Source: an uncultured bacterium
GTDB taxonomy: Bacteria; Patescibacteriota; JACMRA01
DNA length: 64,000 nt
Reading direction: 5' to 3'
Assembly (NCBI GenBank): GCA_963784355.1
Contig: CAWAQU010000012.1
Location: forward strand, 64,001 to 128,000
Positions 7,378 through 60,615 of this stretch are shown piece after piece; within the stretch, counting starts at the first letter, position 1; each line of letters opens with the position of its first letter. Both the position numbers and the translations under genes were made by a program. The notes under the pieces were generated by a model. It saw only the letters and a list, made by a program, of their open reading frames with translations. It was not told the DNA's origin and did no database searches.

Positions 7378-8490
7378 GTGAATTTACTGACATCTCTATA
7401 TTTGGAAGCAGCCAAAATCTTAAGTTATACAGCTCTATCTTTTTTGATAGCTATGTGGTGGGCGCCTAGCCTGATTAGCTTGTTAAAATGGTTGAAATTT
7501 TGGAAAAAGAAAAGTAGGGAAATTGCTACAACGGGTGAAAAATTCGAAGTTACCAAAAGTTTTTATGCACAAGATGAGGCCAAATTGCAAGTGCCTAGGG
7601 CAGGGGGCCTTTTAATATGGATAACTACTCTCAGTTTTGCCACATTTTTTTGGATTGTTTTAAAAATAGAACCAAATAGTAAATTTAGTCAGTTTTTAAA
7701 TTTTGTATCAAGAAAAGAAACATTTATACCACTAGGAACACTTTTTTTTGGATCAATTGTAGGGTTTATTGATGATGCGTTAGCTACTCTTGAAAATGGA
7801 GGAAACTACAAGGCAGGCGGGTTAAAGCTGAGTCATAGAGTAATTTTGGTCTGTATTTTAAGTTTATTAATTGGATTTTGGTTCTTTTTAAAGCTGAATT
7901 TAAATGATATTACTTTAATCCCGGGGTATTTAAATTTAACACATTTACAAATTCCCGGTGTTACAACAAATTGGGTTGTGATACCTGCTGTAGTTATTGT
8001 TTTGTTATCACTTTGGAGTAGTTCTGTTATTGATGGCTTCGATGGTTTGGCTACAGGTACTTTTATTCCAATTTATCTCTGTTTTGCGGGTATTGCCTTT
8101 GCAAGAGGCTTTTATGATATCTCAACTCTCTTAATGGTAATGGTTGGAGCGATGACTGCCTATTTATGGTACAATATACCTCCAGCTAGATTTATTATGG
8201 GGGAGACAGGGAGTATGGGAATACTGTTGATGCTAGGTGTAGTGGCTTTTCTAATAGATGCGGTATATATTATACCGATTGCAGGACTTATGCTTGTACT
8301 TACTTCTGCTTCAGACGTAATCCAGATTTTCTCTAAAAAAGTATTCAAAAGAAAAGTATTTTTGGCTGCTCCGCTGCATCACCACTTAGAGGCTATTGGT
8401 TGGCAAAGAAATCAGATTACTATGAGGTATTGGTTAGTTTCTCTAATGTGCTCTGTACTTGGTTTAGCTGTAGGGTTATTAGTTAGGTAA
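7378..8490 (+). CDS. mraY: phospho-N-acetylmuramoyl-pentapeptide transferase
   Basis: GFIDD, DGFDGLA, YNIPPARFIMGETGS, APLHHHLE. Confidence 0.92.
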   Translation: MNLLTSLYLEAAKILSYTALSFLIAMWWAPSLISLLKWLKFWKKKSREIATTGEKFEVTKSFYAQDEAKLQVPRAGGLLIWITTLSFATFFWIVLKIEPNSKFSQFLNFVSRKETFIPLGTLFFGSIVGFIDDALATLENGGNYKAGGLKLSHRVILVCILSLLIGFWFFLKLNLNDITLIPGYLNLTHLQIPGVTTNWVVIPAVVIVLLSLWSSSVIDGFDGLATGTFIPIYLCFAGIAFARGFYDISTLLMVMVGAMTAYLWYNIPPARFIMGETGSMGILLMLGVVAFLIDAVYIIPIAGLMLVLTSASDVIQIFSKKVFKRKVFLAAPLHHHLEAIGWQRNQITMRYWLVSLMCSVLGLAVGLLVR

Positions 8491-8759
8491 TAATATAAGC
8501 TAGGCGTCCTTATATTAAAAATAGAGTAATCTGTATTATTACTGTATTGCGATAAAATAATCAGTGTTTGATTCAGTGAACTAGAGTGTGATTTAGTTAA
8601 TAATAAAAACAGTCCTTCAATAATCAGATTTTACAATTTTGAAACACATTTTCTAAGATTAATTTGAATATAAATTACAAGTTTTTCACTTTTATTAAAA
8701 TAATTATAGTCATTTAGTATAGATAATTACTAAGCTAAAAGTTTTCCTTATAATATTTC

Positions 8760-8788
8760 TTGACAAATCTAATTTTTTTCTATATAAT
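8760..8788 (+). promoter_or_regulatory. consensus sigma70 promoter driving a non-coding region
   Basis: TTGACA(8760)-17 nt-TATAAT(8783), perfect consensus. Confidence 0.8.
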
Positions 8789-8793
8789 ATAAC

Positions 8794-9129
8794 TAATCTA
8801 AAACAGATTAATTTTACAGCTACCTTAGAACCCGGCAGGGAAAAACAAAAGCTACTATCAACACAATGGTGACTTCTGTTTCTGCCTGTACCTTAGTAAT
8901 AATCGGTGTTTGCTGAAACATTGGTATTACAAAAACAAAAATATAATAACACAAAAACATAAAAATTTTAACAAAAACAAAACCAACTTAAAAACAAAAA
9001 TACAAAAATTATTTAATGGGTCTGGGTAGAAAAAAATCAGCCGAAGTTAGTGTTAAAAAACTAACCCGTATCTCGAGGGTAACTGCCTGTACTTGTTTAA
9101 AACTTTTGGGGCTTAGTTACCCTTTTTTT
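8794..9129 (+). ncRNA. putative structured non-coding RNA of unknown family
   Basis: Bounded by a perfect promoter and a terminator; long-range helix 8820-8833/9018-9029, hairpins 8834-8886 and 8896-8930, G-free loop 8925-9017; no long ORF. Confidence 0.6.
9076..9129 (+). terminator. intrinsic terminator
   Basis: AGGGTAACT...AGTTACCCT followed by a T run. Confidence 0.65.
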
Positions 9130-9188
9130 GTTGCCCAAATAATTTAAAATTAAACCCAATTAGTACATTTTTAGACAAATTTTATATT

Positions 9189-9214
9189 CTCCACCTAGCG
9201 TGGAGTATTTTTTT
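9189..9214 (+). terminator. second intrinsic terminator
   Basis: CTCCAC-ctagc-GTGGAG then TA-T7. Confidence 0.65.
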
Positions 9215-9374
9215 GGCTTAATTTTCTAATTTATTAACTTGCTTCACTTTTTATAAATATTTAATAAAATAAATTGCCTGCTCAAAAGGAAAATAATCTT
9301 AAATAATCTAATTTGTAGACAAGTTGTTTAGTTAATAGTTAGTAGATTTAAATGGGAGGTAGGCCCAAGGTACA

Positions 9375-10262
9375 TTAATTTGCGAAAAAACCTGTTAGAT
9401 TGCCCTCTTGTTGACCATAGACGTGATACCTATCCAAATTTAATGGATTATCAAGATTTATTTCAAAGTTACCAATTTGTTCAATTGTGGTGTAACCTGT
9501 TTTGTAACCAATTTCACGAGCAAGCTTAATTGTTTTTGAGTCAAAAGCGCCATATGGATATACAATTGTTGAAATTTCCATATTTAACTCCTTCTCTAAA
9601 AAGCTTTTGCTTTCTTTAAGCTCGGATATTATTTGCTGTTCTGATAGTCTTATTTTAGAGCCAAATTCTAAACAATTACTTGTATTTATTGCTTTACTAT
9701 TTTCGGGCTTTATAAATATCTTAAGTCTTTGACCAAATTCTAAATTGGATGATAAAGTACAGTGATTTGATGTGTGAGAATCAATGCCCATATTTCTTTT
9801 TTTGAGCACTTTGATCTGATCCAAGCTCATATAGTCAGGTTTGCCGATAGCACTTGTAATTATTGCAAAATTAGCTTTAAAATTATATTTCTCAAGAATT
9901 GGTAGAGCGGTATCAAAACTGTCAGAAAAACCATCATCGATAGTTATGATTATAGGATTATTTGGGAGAGGTTTTTGATTTTCAATATAATCCACCAAGT
10001 CTTTACTTAAAATCGGATTATAGTTTTTCTCTTTTAAATAAACCATCTGTTTCTCAAAAATTTCTGGGCCTACCTTCAAATCAAAGCTAATTTTGTTCTC
10101 GCTTTGTAGATTAGAATAACTTATATGATGATAGGTAAGAATTGGTATCCGTAGGGTTTTTCTGGATTTTTTATTAAACTGTAGAAGTAAAACTGGTACT
10201 ACAATCAGTAAGCAAATTAAGAAAATAGATAGAATTTTAGCTAACTGTAGATTTTTTTTCAT
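9375..10262 (-). CDS. polysaccharide deacetylase (CE4/NodB-like)
   Basis: PILTYHHI, ITIDDG, SHTSNH, YPYG. Confidence 0.9.
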   Translation of the reverse strand: MKKNLQLAKILSIFLICLLIVVPVLLLQFNKKSRKTLRIPILTYHHISYSNLQSENKISFDLKVGPEIFEKQMVYLKEKNYNPILSKDLVDYIENQKPLPNNPIIITIDDGFSDSFDTALPILEKYNFKANFAIITSAIGKPDYMSLDQIKVLKKRNMGIDSHTSNHCTLSSNLEFGQRLKIFIKPENSKAINTSNCLEFGSKIRLSEQQIISELKESKSFLEKELNMEISTIVYPYGAFDSKTIKLAREIGYKTGYTTIEQIGNFEINLDNPLNLDRYHVYGQQEGNLTGFFAN

Positions 10263-58395: not shown

Positions 58396-60615
58396 ATGGC
58401 AGCGAACAATAATCTTAATACGAATCAACCACAAAATACCTCAAATTCCGGGAGAAATTCTAACTTTGGCCAAATTAATATGGGCTATACCCAAGCCCCA
58501 ATGCGAAAATCTTCTGCGGTTCAATTTCCTCAAATTCAAACCAATGCTCAAATGCAGGGTAATTTACCTCAAATGCCAAGTCCTGCAGGTAGCGTAACAC
58601 CAGTAATTAATAATAACCAGCCTCCTTACCCTCAGAGTCAACAATTTTACCCTCAGCAAAGACCATCAATGCCTTATGGACCTAATAATGGTTACGGTCC
58701 AGGGATGCCACCTCAGCAAAATCCGGTGTACGGTAGGCCTGCTTACCCTCAACAAAGAGCGATAGGACCTCAAGAAAATTACGACTATCTCACAAAATTA
58801 AATCCGACTGAGCTTAGAAATGAAGTAATCAAGACTGAAATCGAAATCCAAAAGGCTTTAGTAGATAGTGAAAGAGCTTATAGAGAGGGGATTTCTACTA
58901 TACGTGACTTAATTGCGCCAAGTAGTGTAAAAGTTACCACAGGACAACTGGAAATCGGTACTAAACTTATTCGTAGTTTTTTTGTTTTGACTTATCCTAG
59001 AGTAATAAATAGCGGTTGGCTAGAAGGTGTGGTAAATGCTGATATTCCAATGGATTTATCAATCTTCATTTACCCGAGAGATTCGTCTGATGTACTTCAC
59101 GAATTGAAGAGTAAGGTAGGTAAAATCCAAGCCTCTTTGGAAATTAATTCAGAGCGAGGTGCTGCCAGAGATCCTGCTTTAGAAATAGCTTATAAAGATG
59201 TAGAAAGTCTTCGAGATGCTATTCAACAAGGTGTAGAAAAATTTTTCAGGGTAGGGGTGTATGTTACTATCTACGCTGATAACTTAGACCAAATGGAGAA
59301 ATATACTCAAGATATTGAAGGAATTTTGAGTCAGCAGAGTATCATAATGAAAAGAGCTGCCCTTCAAATGGATGATGGTTTCAACTCTTCACTACCGATT
59401 TTAAAAGATGATTTGTATGTTTTAAATAACATGAATACAAGTCCGCTTTCAGCTTGTTTCCCTTTTGTTTCTTCCGAATTGTCTTCTGACTCAGGTATTT
59501 TGTATGGAGTAAATAGACATAACACTTCTTTAATTATTTTTGATAGATTCGAGCTTGAAAATGCAAATTCCTTAATTTTTGCTACTTCAGGTGCCGGTAA
59601 GAGTTATGCTGTAAAATTAGAAATTTTGAGGAGTTTAATGATGGGAATTTCTGTAATTGTAATTGACCCTGAACAAGAATACAAAGTACTTGCTGATACC
59701 CTGGGAGGTACTTATGTAAATATGAGTTTAAACTCAAATAATCGTATCAATCCTTTTGATTTACCTAAACCTTTACCAGGAGAAAGCACTGCAGATATTT
59801 TGCGTACAGCTATAATTGACTTGATGGGACTTATGGGCTTGATGCTTGGTAAATTGACTCCTGAAGAGATAAGTATTTTGGAAAAAGCAATCCAAGAAGC
59901 TTATGCTAAAAGAGATATTACGGCTGAGAGTGATTTGCATAATATAGTACCTCCTACAATTGGTGATCTAGTGGACATTCTAAACGGTATTGTGGGTGGA
60001 GAAACTTTAGCCCAAAGACTTTATAGATATAGTGAGGGTACCTTTGCCGGTATTTTCAACCAACGTACAAATATCAATATCAGCAATGATTTTATCGTAT
60101 TTAATATTCGAGATTTGCAGGAATCACTGAGACCAATTGCCATGTATGTACTCTTGAAGTACATTTGGAACGAAATTAGATCTAGTTTGAGAAAAAGAAT
60201 TTTGGCTATCGATGAGGCCTGGATTATGATGCAATACGAAGATTCGGCTAGGTTTTTGTATGGGCTTGTAAAGCGTGCCCGTAAATATTATTTGGGAATT
60301 ACCACAATTACTCAGGATGTAGGTGACTTTTTGAGCTCTCCATTCGGAAAACCAATTGTGACTAACGCGGCTATGAAGTTATTGCTTAAACAATCTCCGG
60401 CTGCTATTGATACCGTTGCTGATACCTTTGCACTTACCGGTGGTGAAAAACAAGTTTTATTGCAATCGGATGTAGGGCAGGGAATCTTTTTTGCCGGTCC
60501 GAGGCATGTAGCTATTGAAATTGTGGCTTTTCCAACCGAACACAGGATCATTACCACCAATCCAAAAGACATCCTGAGAATGCAAGGTATGAATGAGAAC
60601 GATATTCAGGTTTAG
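58396..60615 (+). CDS. VirB4/TraC-like (DUF87) ATPase with Q/P/N-rich N-terminal extension
   Basis: ATSGAGKS, IDPEQEY, INPFD, IDEAW, KRARKY, ITQD. Confidence 0.9.
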   Translation: MAANNNLNTNQPQNTSNSGRNSNFGQINMGYTQAPMRKSSAVQFPQIQTNAQMQGNLPQMPSPAGSVTPVINNNQPPYPQSQQFYPQQRPSMPYGPNNGYGPGMPPQQNPVYGRPAYPQQRAIGPQENYDYLTKLNPTELRNEVIKTEIEIQKALVDSERAYREGISTIRDLIAPSSVKVTTGQLEIGTKLIRSFFVLTYPRVINSGWLEGVVNADIPMDLSIFIYPRDSSDVLHELKSKVGKIQASLEINSERGAARDPALEIAYKDVESLRDAIQQGVEKFFRVGVYVTIYADNLDQMEKYTQDIEGILSQQSIIMKRAALQMDDGFNSSLPILKDDLYVLNNMNTSPLSACFPFVSSELSSDSGILYGVNRHNTSLIIFDRFELENANSLIFATSGAGKSYAVKLEILRSLMMGISVIVIDPEQEYKVLADTLGGTYVNMSLNSNNRINPFDLPKPLPGESTADILRTAIIDLMGLMGLMLGKLTPEEISILEKAIQEAYAKRDITAESDLHNIVPPTIGDLVDILNGIVGGETLAQRLYRYSEGTFAGIFNQRTNINISNDFIVFNIRDLQESLRPIAMYVLLKYIWNEIRSSLRKRILAIDEAWIMMQYEDSARFLYGLVKRARKYYLGITTITQDVGDFLSSPFGKPIVTNAAMKLLLKQSPAAIDTVADTFALTGGEKQVLLQSDVGQGIFFAGPRHVAIEIVAFPTEHRIITTNPKDILRMQGMNENDIQV

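Follow-up and report, generated by a model that had tools for sequence, protein, structure and literature searches.

Orphan structured non-coding RNAs (ncRNAs) that are restricted to particular lineages, such as raiA, OLE, ROOL and GOLLD, have been found by comparative genomics and are included in Rfam. Among other bacterial RNAs, CrcZ of Pseudomonas binds Hfq via A-rich motifs, the transfer-messenger RNA (tmRNA) binds ribosomal protein S1, and 6S RNA is present in Bacillus as two paralogues in one genome. The candidate phyla radiation (CPR, Patescibacteria) makes up a large share of bacterial diversity, with genomes of about 1 Mb that retain little beyond the essentials, and to our knowledge almost nothing is known about its RNA biology. 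Here we analyse a locus in 64,000 nucleotides of DNA from an uncultured bacterium of this group (GenBank assembly GCA_963784355.1, contig CAWAQU010000012.1, positions 64,001 to 128,000), a stretch which we call the window. Judged from genome sequence, positions 8760-9129 of its plus strand are an independent gene for a stable structured ncRNA of about 335 nt (about 8795-9129). The predicted RNA belongs to an uncatalogued family that is kept by nearly every genome of one Patescibacteria class, often as two paralogous types, and we are highly confident that this is a real new ncRNA family.

With raiA, OLE, ROOL and GOLLD the RNA has in common a complex covarying fold, the presence in one lineage, the lack of a conserved neighbourhood and a function unknown at discovery. 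It differs from them in having no Rfam match and in being confined to a CPR class, and it is smaller than OLE, ROOL and GOLLD. CrcZ and CrcY (Rfam: RF01675) are also stand-alone RNAs of several hundred nucleotides with repeated A-rich single-stranded motifs, and the repeated single-stranded A-rich (AAN)n of CrcZ-like sponges is found in the new RNA if its CAAAAA units are read as AAN triplets. However, the RNA is not a member, as the CrcZ model matches positions 8971-9029 at chance level (E = 2.5, with 10.6 bits where the cut-off is 95). CrcZ also comes from another taxonomic group and lacks any counterpart of the long-range helix and the pseudoknot that covary here; moreover, Hfq was not found in the genome of the window. 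The tmRNA is similar in size and likewise has an unstructured A-rich, mRNA-like stretch framed by pseudoknotted structure inside a long-range helix, but tRNA-like ends are missing from the new RNA, as are a conserved reading frame and a tag. 6S RNA is comparable as a stand-alone regulatory RNA with a strong promoter which is presumably abundant and stable. It forms a closed rod with a central bubble, whereas the new RNA has separate end hairpins, a pseudoknot and a long single strand.

The window is part of contig C12 of the genome that we refer to as G000, an assembly of 1.14 Mb in 13 contigs with about 33% GC and an estimated completeness of 81%; the genomes of its relatives all measure 0.7-2 Mb. 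In a blastn search with the whole locus against 41 relatives, matches were found in 31 genomes. One of them is a true homologue, in the congener G001, with 69% identity over positions 108-370 of the query. All other matches cover the A-rich tract or the terminator only, and a motif check of these loci agrees. In promoter type the G001 copy agrees with that of G000; its 5' hairpin is of other sequence and its neighbours are different. The blocks UUUUACAGCUACCUU, UUCUGCCUGU, GGGUCUGGGUAGAA, CCCGUAU, AGGGUAACUGCCU and GGCUUAGUU are invariant between G000 and G001, and GCCGAAG is common to both as well, with an offset of one column in the MAFFT alignment. An exact pattern of the 3' domain, searched in 26 family genomes, matched in G000 and G001 only.

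Covariance models extended the family through the class of the window, which is represented by 27 species genomes in the collection. The model R1, built on the 3' domain of G000 and G001, matched in 8 of the 27 class genomes, the model R2, rebuilt from eight sequences, in 17 and the model R3, built on the core of 20 sequences, in 23, where the E-values of these home-built models are rough. Out of 11 new places found by R3 and inspected, ten belong to the family, two of them being halves of one copy split by contig ends; eight weaker R3 matches were excluded from the inspected set. Second matches in G000 (contig C8) and G003 (contig C120) were rejected as coding sequence. Among 143 sampled genomes of the phylum outside the class, R2 gave weak matches in two and R3 in six, with no convincing copy. 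The R2 matches in G138 and G088 and five of the six R3 matches (G037, G043, G046, G115 and G051; G136 was left out) were inspected and rejected, as they are without family features and correspond to terminators, other RNAs or A-rich coding sequence. The phage and plasmid collections gave no match to the RNA, and a three-block pattern searched in metagenome contigs hit two loci, both of them chance matches in coding-like sequence.

The eight copies that were measured first span 312-359 nt from promoter to U-run. We distinguish two types, with labels that are our own. Type A copies resemble that of G000 and carry GGGUAGAA after the linker, while type B copies carry GGGUGAAG, have a longer 3' domain and present the partner strand of the pseudoknot from the loop of a small hairpin. 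One copy of each type is present in G001, G002, G008 and G016, and two type A-like copies are present in each of G041 and G025. Searches of the G000 assembly (81% complete) with R2 and R3 found no type B paralogue.

A further locus, L071 (G024 contig C18, oriented about 1475-1650), encodes an RNA of about 180 nt with its own TTGAC/TATAAT promoter. Only its 3' portion, CUAACAAAGGGG together with a bulged terminal hairpin, is common to this RNA and type B, and it may be either a truncated relative or a different RNA with the same 3' module.

The elements of the G000 locus, with P0 to P3 and Px denoting helices, are as follows (MFE, minimum free energy):

8760-8788, plus strand: promoter, with the -35 element TTGACA at 8760-8765, a spacer of 17 nt and the -10 element TATAAT at 8783-8788 (12/12 sigma-70 match)
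8794-8810, plus strand: P0, 5'-terminal hairpin, pairing 8794-8799 with 8805-8810 in the MFE fold
8812-8819, plus strand: single-stranded motif UUUUACAG, invariant between G000 and G001
8820-8833, plus strand: strand a, the 5' strand of P1, pairing with 9018-9029 as part of the MFE fold
8834-8886, plus strand: P2, a long imperfect hairpin whose base, GGCAG 8834-8838/CUGCC 8882-8886, overlaps strand a'
8879-8893, plus strand: strand a', the 5' strand of Px, pairing with 9018-9032 in 14 pairs with one mismatch
8896-8930, plus strand: P3 hairpin, whose loop GCUGA (8912-8916) supplies the 5' side of the pseudoknot
8931-9015, plus strand: A-rich single-stranded linker of 85 nt, with 58 A, 11 C, 16 U and no G, carrying CAAAAA repeats
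9018-9032, plus strand: strand b' (GGGUCUGGGUAGAAA), the 3' strand of both Px and P1, invariant between G000 and G001 and covarying with a'
9037-9041, plus strand: 3' strand of the pseudoknot, UCAGC, pairing with the P3 loop at 8912-8916
9046-9065, plus strand: small variable hairpin GUUAG/CUAAC, present in the MFE fold
9076-9129, plus strand: terminal hairpin, a presumed intrinsic terminator, with a 9-bp stem, a UU bulge at 9113-9114, three G-C pairs, a large loop and a run of seven U at 9123-9129
9130-9140, plus strand: trailer GUUGCCCAAAU after the U-run, with a [GAT][CT]CCAAA motif at the equivalent place in homologues
9189-9214, plus strand: second intrinsic terminator, a stem at 9189-9205 followed by a U-run

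The MFE fold of 8794-9129 on the plus strand has an energy of -72.1 kcal/mol with a z-score of -3.70, and none of 100 shuffles was as good. On the minus strand the z-score is -1.70 and four of 100 shuffles were as good. All structural elements named in the first-pass annotation, a model's reading of the window's letters, were recovered where it had placed them. The 5' hairpin TAATCT/AGATTA, the two enclosed hairpins at 8834-8886 and 8896-8930 and the GTTAG/CTAAC hairpin (9046-9050/9061-9065) are all part of the MFE fold, as is the long terminal hairpin with its run of seven U (9076-9129), and the large loop is unpaired and A-rich. The G-U pairs that it had read as specific to the plus strand also held, as at two positions of the conserved helix GU is found in 10 and UG in 13 out of 20 sequences.

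P0, P2 and P3 are present in every copy folded, with differing sequences. Directly 3' of the promoter the homologues have a hairpin of other sequence equivalent to P0, and a long hairpin equivalent to P2, with its end at a' or shortly ahead of it, is predicted in 20 out of 20 copies folded. At the position of the 8812-8819 motif, most other copies of both types have a UUUACAG(C/U)-like sequence (by eye). In G001 the equivalent of the small hairpin at 9046-9065 is a hairpin of other sequence between the conserved GCCGAAG and CCCGUAU (by eye).

The first-pass annotation had suggested a search for covariation among homologues. Such homologues exist, and Px, the pseudoknot and the terminal hairpin covary in them. 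Px is a long-range helix of 13-15 bp across 29 copies, closing the domain that contains P3 and the G-poor, A-rich linker, and the duplex of a' with b' reaches -13.0 to -20.8 kcal/mol in all 20 copies analysed. In a MAFFT alignment of 20 sequences, the 15 pairs of Px and the pseudoknot together are formed in 87.3% of cells, compared to 32-51% with the partners slid. Their covariation score is 0.443, compared to 0.05-0.18 with slid partners, and 0 of 500 shuffles scored as high. Over the 29 copies, Px has an energy of -16.2 kcal/mol with its own partner and of -10.0 kcal/mol with the partners of other copies. The same copies show 11 different complementary combinations of the Px core, for example UCUGCCU/GGUAGAA, UUCACCU/GGUGAAG, UCCGCCU/GGCGGAG, UCCAGCU/GCUGGAA and UCCAUCU/GGUGGAC. 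G003, in which the anchors are unclear, and G024b, the RNA of about 180 nt with only the 3' part in common, were excluded from the 29-copy duplex analysis. The alignments are small, with 20-29 copies from 22-23 related genomes, and we rely chiefly on the slid-partner and own-versus-other-copy controls because the kinship of the sequences inflates shuffle tests.

The long-range helix given in the first-pass annotation was that between 8820-8833 and 9018-9029, here P1. It is part of the MFE fold and its 3' strand is correct, but its 5' partner is strong in 4 of 20 copies only. The comparison thus predicts that Px is the family-wide helix and P1 a lineage-specific alternative that competes for b', because a' is strong in all 20 copies and strand a in four (a duplex of -14 kcal/mol or stronger is found in G000, G001, G013 and G008 only), and because the type B copies and G016 have neither strand a nor a 5' copy of b'. 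In the four genera which carry strand a, its flanks vary together with b'.

As b' can pair with either 8820-8833 or 8879-8893, two mutually exclusive folds are possible. The RNA could therefore be a conformational switch or RNA sensor in which 9018-9032 alternates between 8820-8833, with full P2, and 8879-8893 in Px when a signal arrives, and so exposes or hides elements. Both partners are complementary to b' in the four genera, and in G000 their duplexes with it are equally stable (-16.4 kcal/mol for strand a and -16.2 kcal/mol for a'); the fold with P1 and full P2 is the MFE structure, at -72.1 kcal/mol, and the Px-enforced fold has -64.8 kcal/mol. However, the duplex of strand a is weaker than -14 kcal/mol in 16 out of 20 copies and absent from type B and G016, so that switching cannot be the mechanism of the whole family, and the redundancy may be the mere residue of a partial duplication. 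We consider a switch unlikely as the function of the RNA, and the P1 alternative could be either a switch or such a residue.

In many copies an AUG (at 9016 in the window) or a GGAGG-like purine run lies at the 5' edge of b', inside Px (by eye).

The first-pass annotation overlooked a predicted pseudoknot, in which the loop of P3 pairs just 3' of Px. The P3 hairpin is predicted in 20 out of 20 copies at -4.6 to -13.5 kcal/mol, with stem sequences that differ. MAFFT alignments of P2 and P3 are too poor for column-wise counts, and the support for P3 therefore consists of per-sequence folds. Its loop pairs with 5-8 nt just 3' of b', which in G000 are 9037-9041 pairing with 8912-8916. Over the 29 copies the mean energy is -8.4 kcal/mol with a copy's own 3' strand and -4.5 kcal/mol with those of other copies, and both sides change in six of the six aligned pairs. 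By lineage, the pairs are GCUGA/UCAGC, AUUGAGA/UCUCAAU, CUGACA/UGUCAG, AGCUAGGA/UCCUAGCU, CACCGAUA/UAUCGGUG and CACUCAUG/CAUGAGUG. In type B, where a small conserved hairpin carries the partner in its loop, the arrangement is a kissing loop.

The function may lie in the structured core, which would bind a dedicated protein or ligand or be catalytic, with the A-rich tract as a flexible spacer that is free of G and thus does not interfere with folding. Conservation and covariation are strongest in Px, the pseudoknot and the terminal hairpin, and the kissing-loop arrangement of type B is one that compact tertiary folds typically show. We can name no ligand, protein or reaction for such a core, and we hold this reading to be possible but tentative.

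The sequence of the linker itself bears on this question. The 20 linkers pooled consist of 64.2% A, 21.3% U, 11.9% C and 2.6% G. Their 49 occurrences of CAAAAA are threefold over composition-matched shuffles (15.7 ± 3.2, with a maximum of 27 in 1000 shuffles). Furthermore, CAAAAACAAAAA is found in five of the 20 linkers as delimited by automatic boundaries, compared to a shuffle mean of 0.25. Both enrichments argue for sequence selection within the tract and so against a mere spacer. Eight linkers delimited by hand measure 44-85 nt, and those of the family mostly 44-86 nt.

The perfect TTGACA-17-TATAAT promoter reported by the first-pass annotation is present at 8760-8788. It is one of 11 promoter-like sites in 8300-9500 and the sole one with 12/12 matches; the same region yields 6.5 ± 2.7 promoter-like sites at 9/12 or more when shuffled. 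By regular expression, 19 of the 22 homologous loci show a TTGAC-N17-20-TAnnnT promoter in the corresponding position, and a consensus-like one also stands ahead of nine of nine further copies (by eye). From these near-consensus promoters of the homologues we infer that the RNA is probably abundant. Near-universal retention in genomes of about 1 Mb, strong promoters and ends that are presumably protected together point to an abundant trans-acting RNA.

Two tandem terminators had also been proposed. The second is the only terminator-like site flagged when 8300-9500 was scanned, while the first, whose bulge and large loop this simple scan does not admit, is conserved and covarying. The gap of about 880 bp between convergent genes measures 884 bp between these flanking open reading frames (ORFs):

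7378-8490, plus strand: upstream flanking ORF, glycosyltransferase family 4
9375-10262, minus strand: downstream flanking ORF, polysaccharide deacetylase

Among the 78 ORFs that flank the homologous loci, homology is confined to genera and gives five small clusters. Divergent upstream genes are found at 17 of 21 loci; of the downstream ORFs at 20 loci, 13 are co-oriented and seven, that of G000 among them, convergent. Thus the locus has what characterises a stand-alone bacterial small RNA (sRNA) gene, namely its own promoter, its own intrinsic terminator and independence of any particular neighbour. A downstream gene family conserved on the same strand, as expected for a riboswitch or cis leader, is not found.

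These data also bear on whether the RNA is the mRNA of a small protein or of a type I toxin, or a cis leader or 3' untranslated region of a neighbour. An AUG at 9016 after an A-rich tract would make a good leader in a Shine-Dalgarno-poor organism, and the downstream gene is co-oriented in the 13 loci just mentioned. However, the longest internal ORFs have 13-50 codons, and those from the AUG position, of 3-43 codons (by eye), are unrelated and run in differing frames over conserved nucleotides. The 43-codon ORF at 9016-9147 reads through the terminator in G000 and is replaced in G001 by an unrelated frame, and the conserved GCCGAAG lies in different frames. The linker has no G and therefore no ATG, GTG or TTG. 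As a leader, the element would precede genes which are non-homologous, and convergent in 7 out of 20 loci. A coding or leader role was rejected, with no conserved ORF found and flanks homologous within genera only; we regard it as highly improbable.

A base-pairing regulatory sRNA, whose A/C-rich tract or UUUACAG motif would pair with U/G-rich segments of mRNAs, would fit the stand-alone gene with its own promoter and terminator, the accessible single strand and the absence of conserved neighbours. Nevertheless, a length of about 335 nt and an elaborate fold that covaries are atypical for seed pairing, an A-rich seed in a genome of 33% GC would have very low specificity, and Hfq was not found in G000. 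We thus think such an sRNA improbable, slightly more so than the switch. A sponge for Hfq was rejected, because Hfq was not found: its family (Pfam: PF17209) has no match at E ≤ 0.1 in G000, which is 81% complete.

The novelty of the ncRNA claimed in the first-pass annotation is supported by the absence of an Rfam match together with the strong covariation in homologues. At the gathering thresholds of Rfam 15, the 64-kb window gave no match besides three tRNAs. At E ≤ 10, the region 8480-9400 gave four chance-level matches of 10-19 bits, against cut-offs of 51-95. Ten type B loci are also without Rfam match. In the literature, the titles and abstracts searched describe no CPR-specific structured ncRNA. 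We therefore rate the RNA as a new family without identifiable relative.

None of the four families of which the first-pass annotation had found no complete signature, namely tmRNA, RNase P RNA, the signal recognition particle (SRP) RNA and 6S RNA, matched at the locus. The RNase P RNA of G000 (Rfam: RF00010) lies at C9:19452-19796 with 143.9 bits, and nothing of it is found at this locus. The tmRNA of G000 (Rfam: RF00023) is at C1:923-1386 with 62.4 bits, with no match in 8480-9400 at E ≤ 10; tRNA-like ends are absent from the new RNA, whose 3' end is a hairpin with a run of seven U. A reverse-transcriptase template, as in retrons, DRT systems or telomerase-like systems, was rejected too, with no match to Pfam PF00078 at E ≤ 0.01 in G000 and a glycosyltransferase and a deacetylase as neighbours.

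SRP RNA and 6S RNA need closer attention, as neither was detected in G000 and an RNA that is near-universal in its class could be a highly divergent form of one of them. The SRP models (Rfam: RF00169, RF01854) have no match in 8480-9400 at E ≤ 10 and none in G000 at E ≤ 1. The hallmark of SRP RNA is the helix-8 hairpin with a GNRA-type tetraloop and a conserved internal-loop motif. Three loose regular expressions for this motif, run genome-wide, gave no hit at C12:72,760-73,214, where the RNA lies. The SRP protein partner Ffh was also not found, and the family is confined to one class, yet SRP RNA is undetected elsewhere in the phylum sample too. The 6S model (Rfam: RF00013) has no match at the locus (E ≤ 10) or in G000, although this model is weak and found 6S RNA in 5 of 14 control genomes. 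The architecture speaks against 6S RNA as well: instead of ends paired into a closed rod with a central bubble, the MFE, centroid and comparative structures have separate, local terminal hairpins and a pseudoknotted core. A divergent SRP or 6S RNA is thus very unlikely, with no match to either model even at E ≤ 10.

Across the phylum, the SRP RNA models matched in 0 of 41 and 0 of 40 genomes, closed and 100%-complete genomes included. The Ffh M domain (Pfam: PF02978) was found in 0 of 41 genomes. The SRP54-type GTPase (Pfam: PF00448) gave P-loop-level matches only (18-22 bits; 13 of 41 genomes). G000 has none of these matches, and no SRP-type GTPase motif was found in it; across its six frames DTAGR is found once, within an L31-like ORF. 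That the SRP pathway could not be traced means either that the whole lineage has truly lost it or that our first-look filter is blind to it.

For the function of the RNA, we tentatively propose a trans-acting decoy or scaffold that mimics A-rich mRNA leaders without Shine-Dalgarno sequence. The pseudoknotted, rigid core would display an unstructured (Y-A5)n tract, which would resemble the A-rich, G-poor translation initiation regions without Shine-Dalgarno sequence of the organism. The tract would capture a translation component that binds single-stranded RNA, most plausibly ribosomal protein S1 or 30S subunits, and exchange between the two long-range helices could modulate this capture. The genome encodes a 391-aa ORF with three S1 domains, at C11:7159-7887. 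Regions upstream of its ORFs contain about 44% A and about 10% G, and as they are A-rich, poor in G and have few Shine-Dalgarno tetramers, the G-free tract resembles them. A more specific form, a class-specific housekeeping riboregulator that as a leader mimic captures S1 or 30S subunits and sets global translation capacity, gated by helix exchange, we consider unlikely.

Several points weigh against this interpretation, and some of them already against the gene and family on which it builds. All of the evidence for the gene comes from genome sequence, and four of the 27 class genomes (68-85% complete) have no R3 match. In the terminal hairpin, 91.6% of cells are paired over 22 sequences, compared to 44-54% with slid partners, and changes on both sides are seen for 10 of the 12 pairs, in an alignment, however, that was itself fitted to the model. 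In favour of the decoy, a Shine-Dalgarno-like tetramer (GGAG, GAGG or AGGA) is found at -22 to -5 of the first ATG in only 34 out of 645 ORFs of at least 200 codons in G000; this count, however, was made with a naive choice of start codons. The link to S1 or the 30S subunit is drawn from likeness of composition only. Moreover, the linker varies widely in length and is poorly conserved outside the hexamer motif, which fits a passive spacer as well, and the copy in G004 has no A-rich linker (7 nt by automatic boundary, a short purine-mixed segment). The tract may therefore be dispensable, or the G004 copy degenerate. The variable length and the missing linker speak for a core-centred function. 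We consider such a function and the leader-mimic decoy about equally likely, and an sRNA, a switch, a divergent universal RNA or an mRNA less likely.

With the same naive start codons, translation initiation in G000 appears to be independent of Shine-Dalgarno sequences.

A covarying, pseudoknotted RNA of about 335 nt with a near-consensus promoter in 23 of the 27 genomes is likely to be important in this class, and the family is currently missed by genome annotation pipelines. It can be put to the test, as its ends and its fold are defined, two helices compete and there is a candidate partner. If the more specific form of the decoy proposal, the housekeeping riboregulator, were true, the RNA would represent a new class of translational sponge and the first functional CPR-specific ncRNA, in bacteria whose translation initiation seems not to need Shine-Dalgarno pairing and whose SRP pathway appears to be missing. 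The leader-mimic idea, if right, would link the RNA to the Shine-Dalgarno-poor initiation of G000.

Downstream of the U-run, a [GAT][CT]CCAAA motif (GCCCAAA-like) lies within 6 nt in 9 of 22 homologous loci (by eye). It was seen at the equivalents of 9130-9140 in L055, L057, L060, L063, L068, L069 and L070, and the 11-mer GTTGCCCAAAT after the U-run is common to G000 and G003. Of 100 other terminators with a perfect stem in G000, one is followed by the motif, compared to an expectation of 1.2. The motif could belong to the RNA, or it could be a site for processing or a site in the DNA.

Elsewhere in the window, a 739-aa ORF at 58396-60615 on the plus strand combines a TraG P-loop with HerA/DUF87 and VirB4/TrbE-type domains and corresponds to a type IV secretion or conjugation ATPase.

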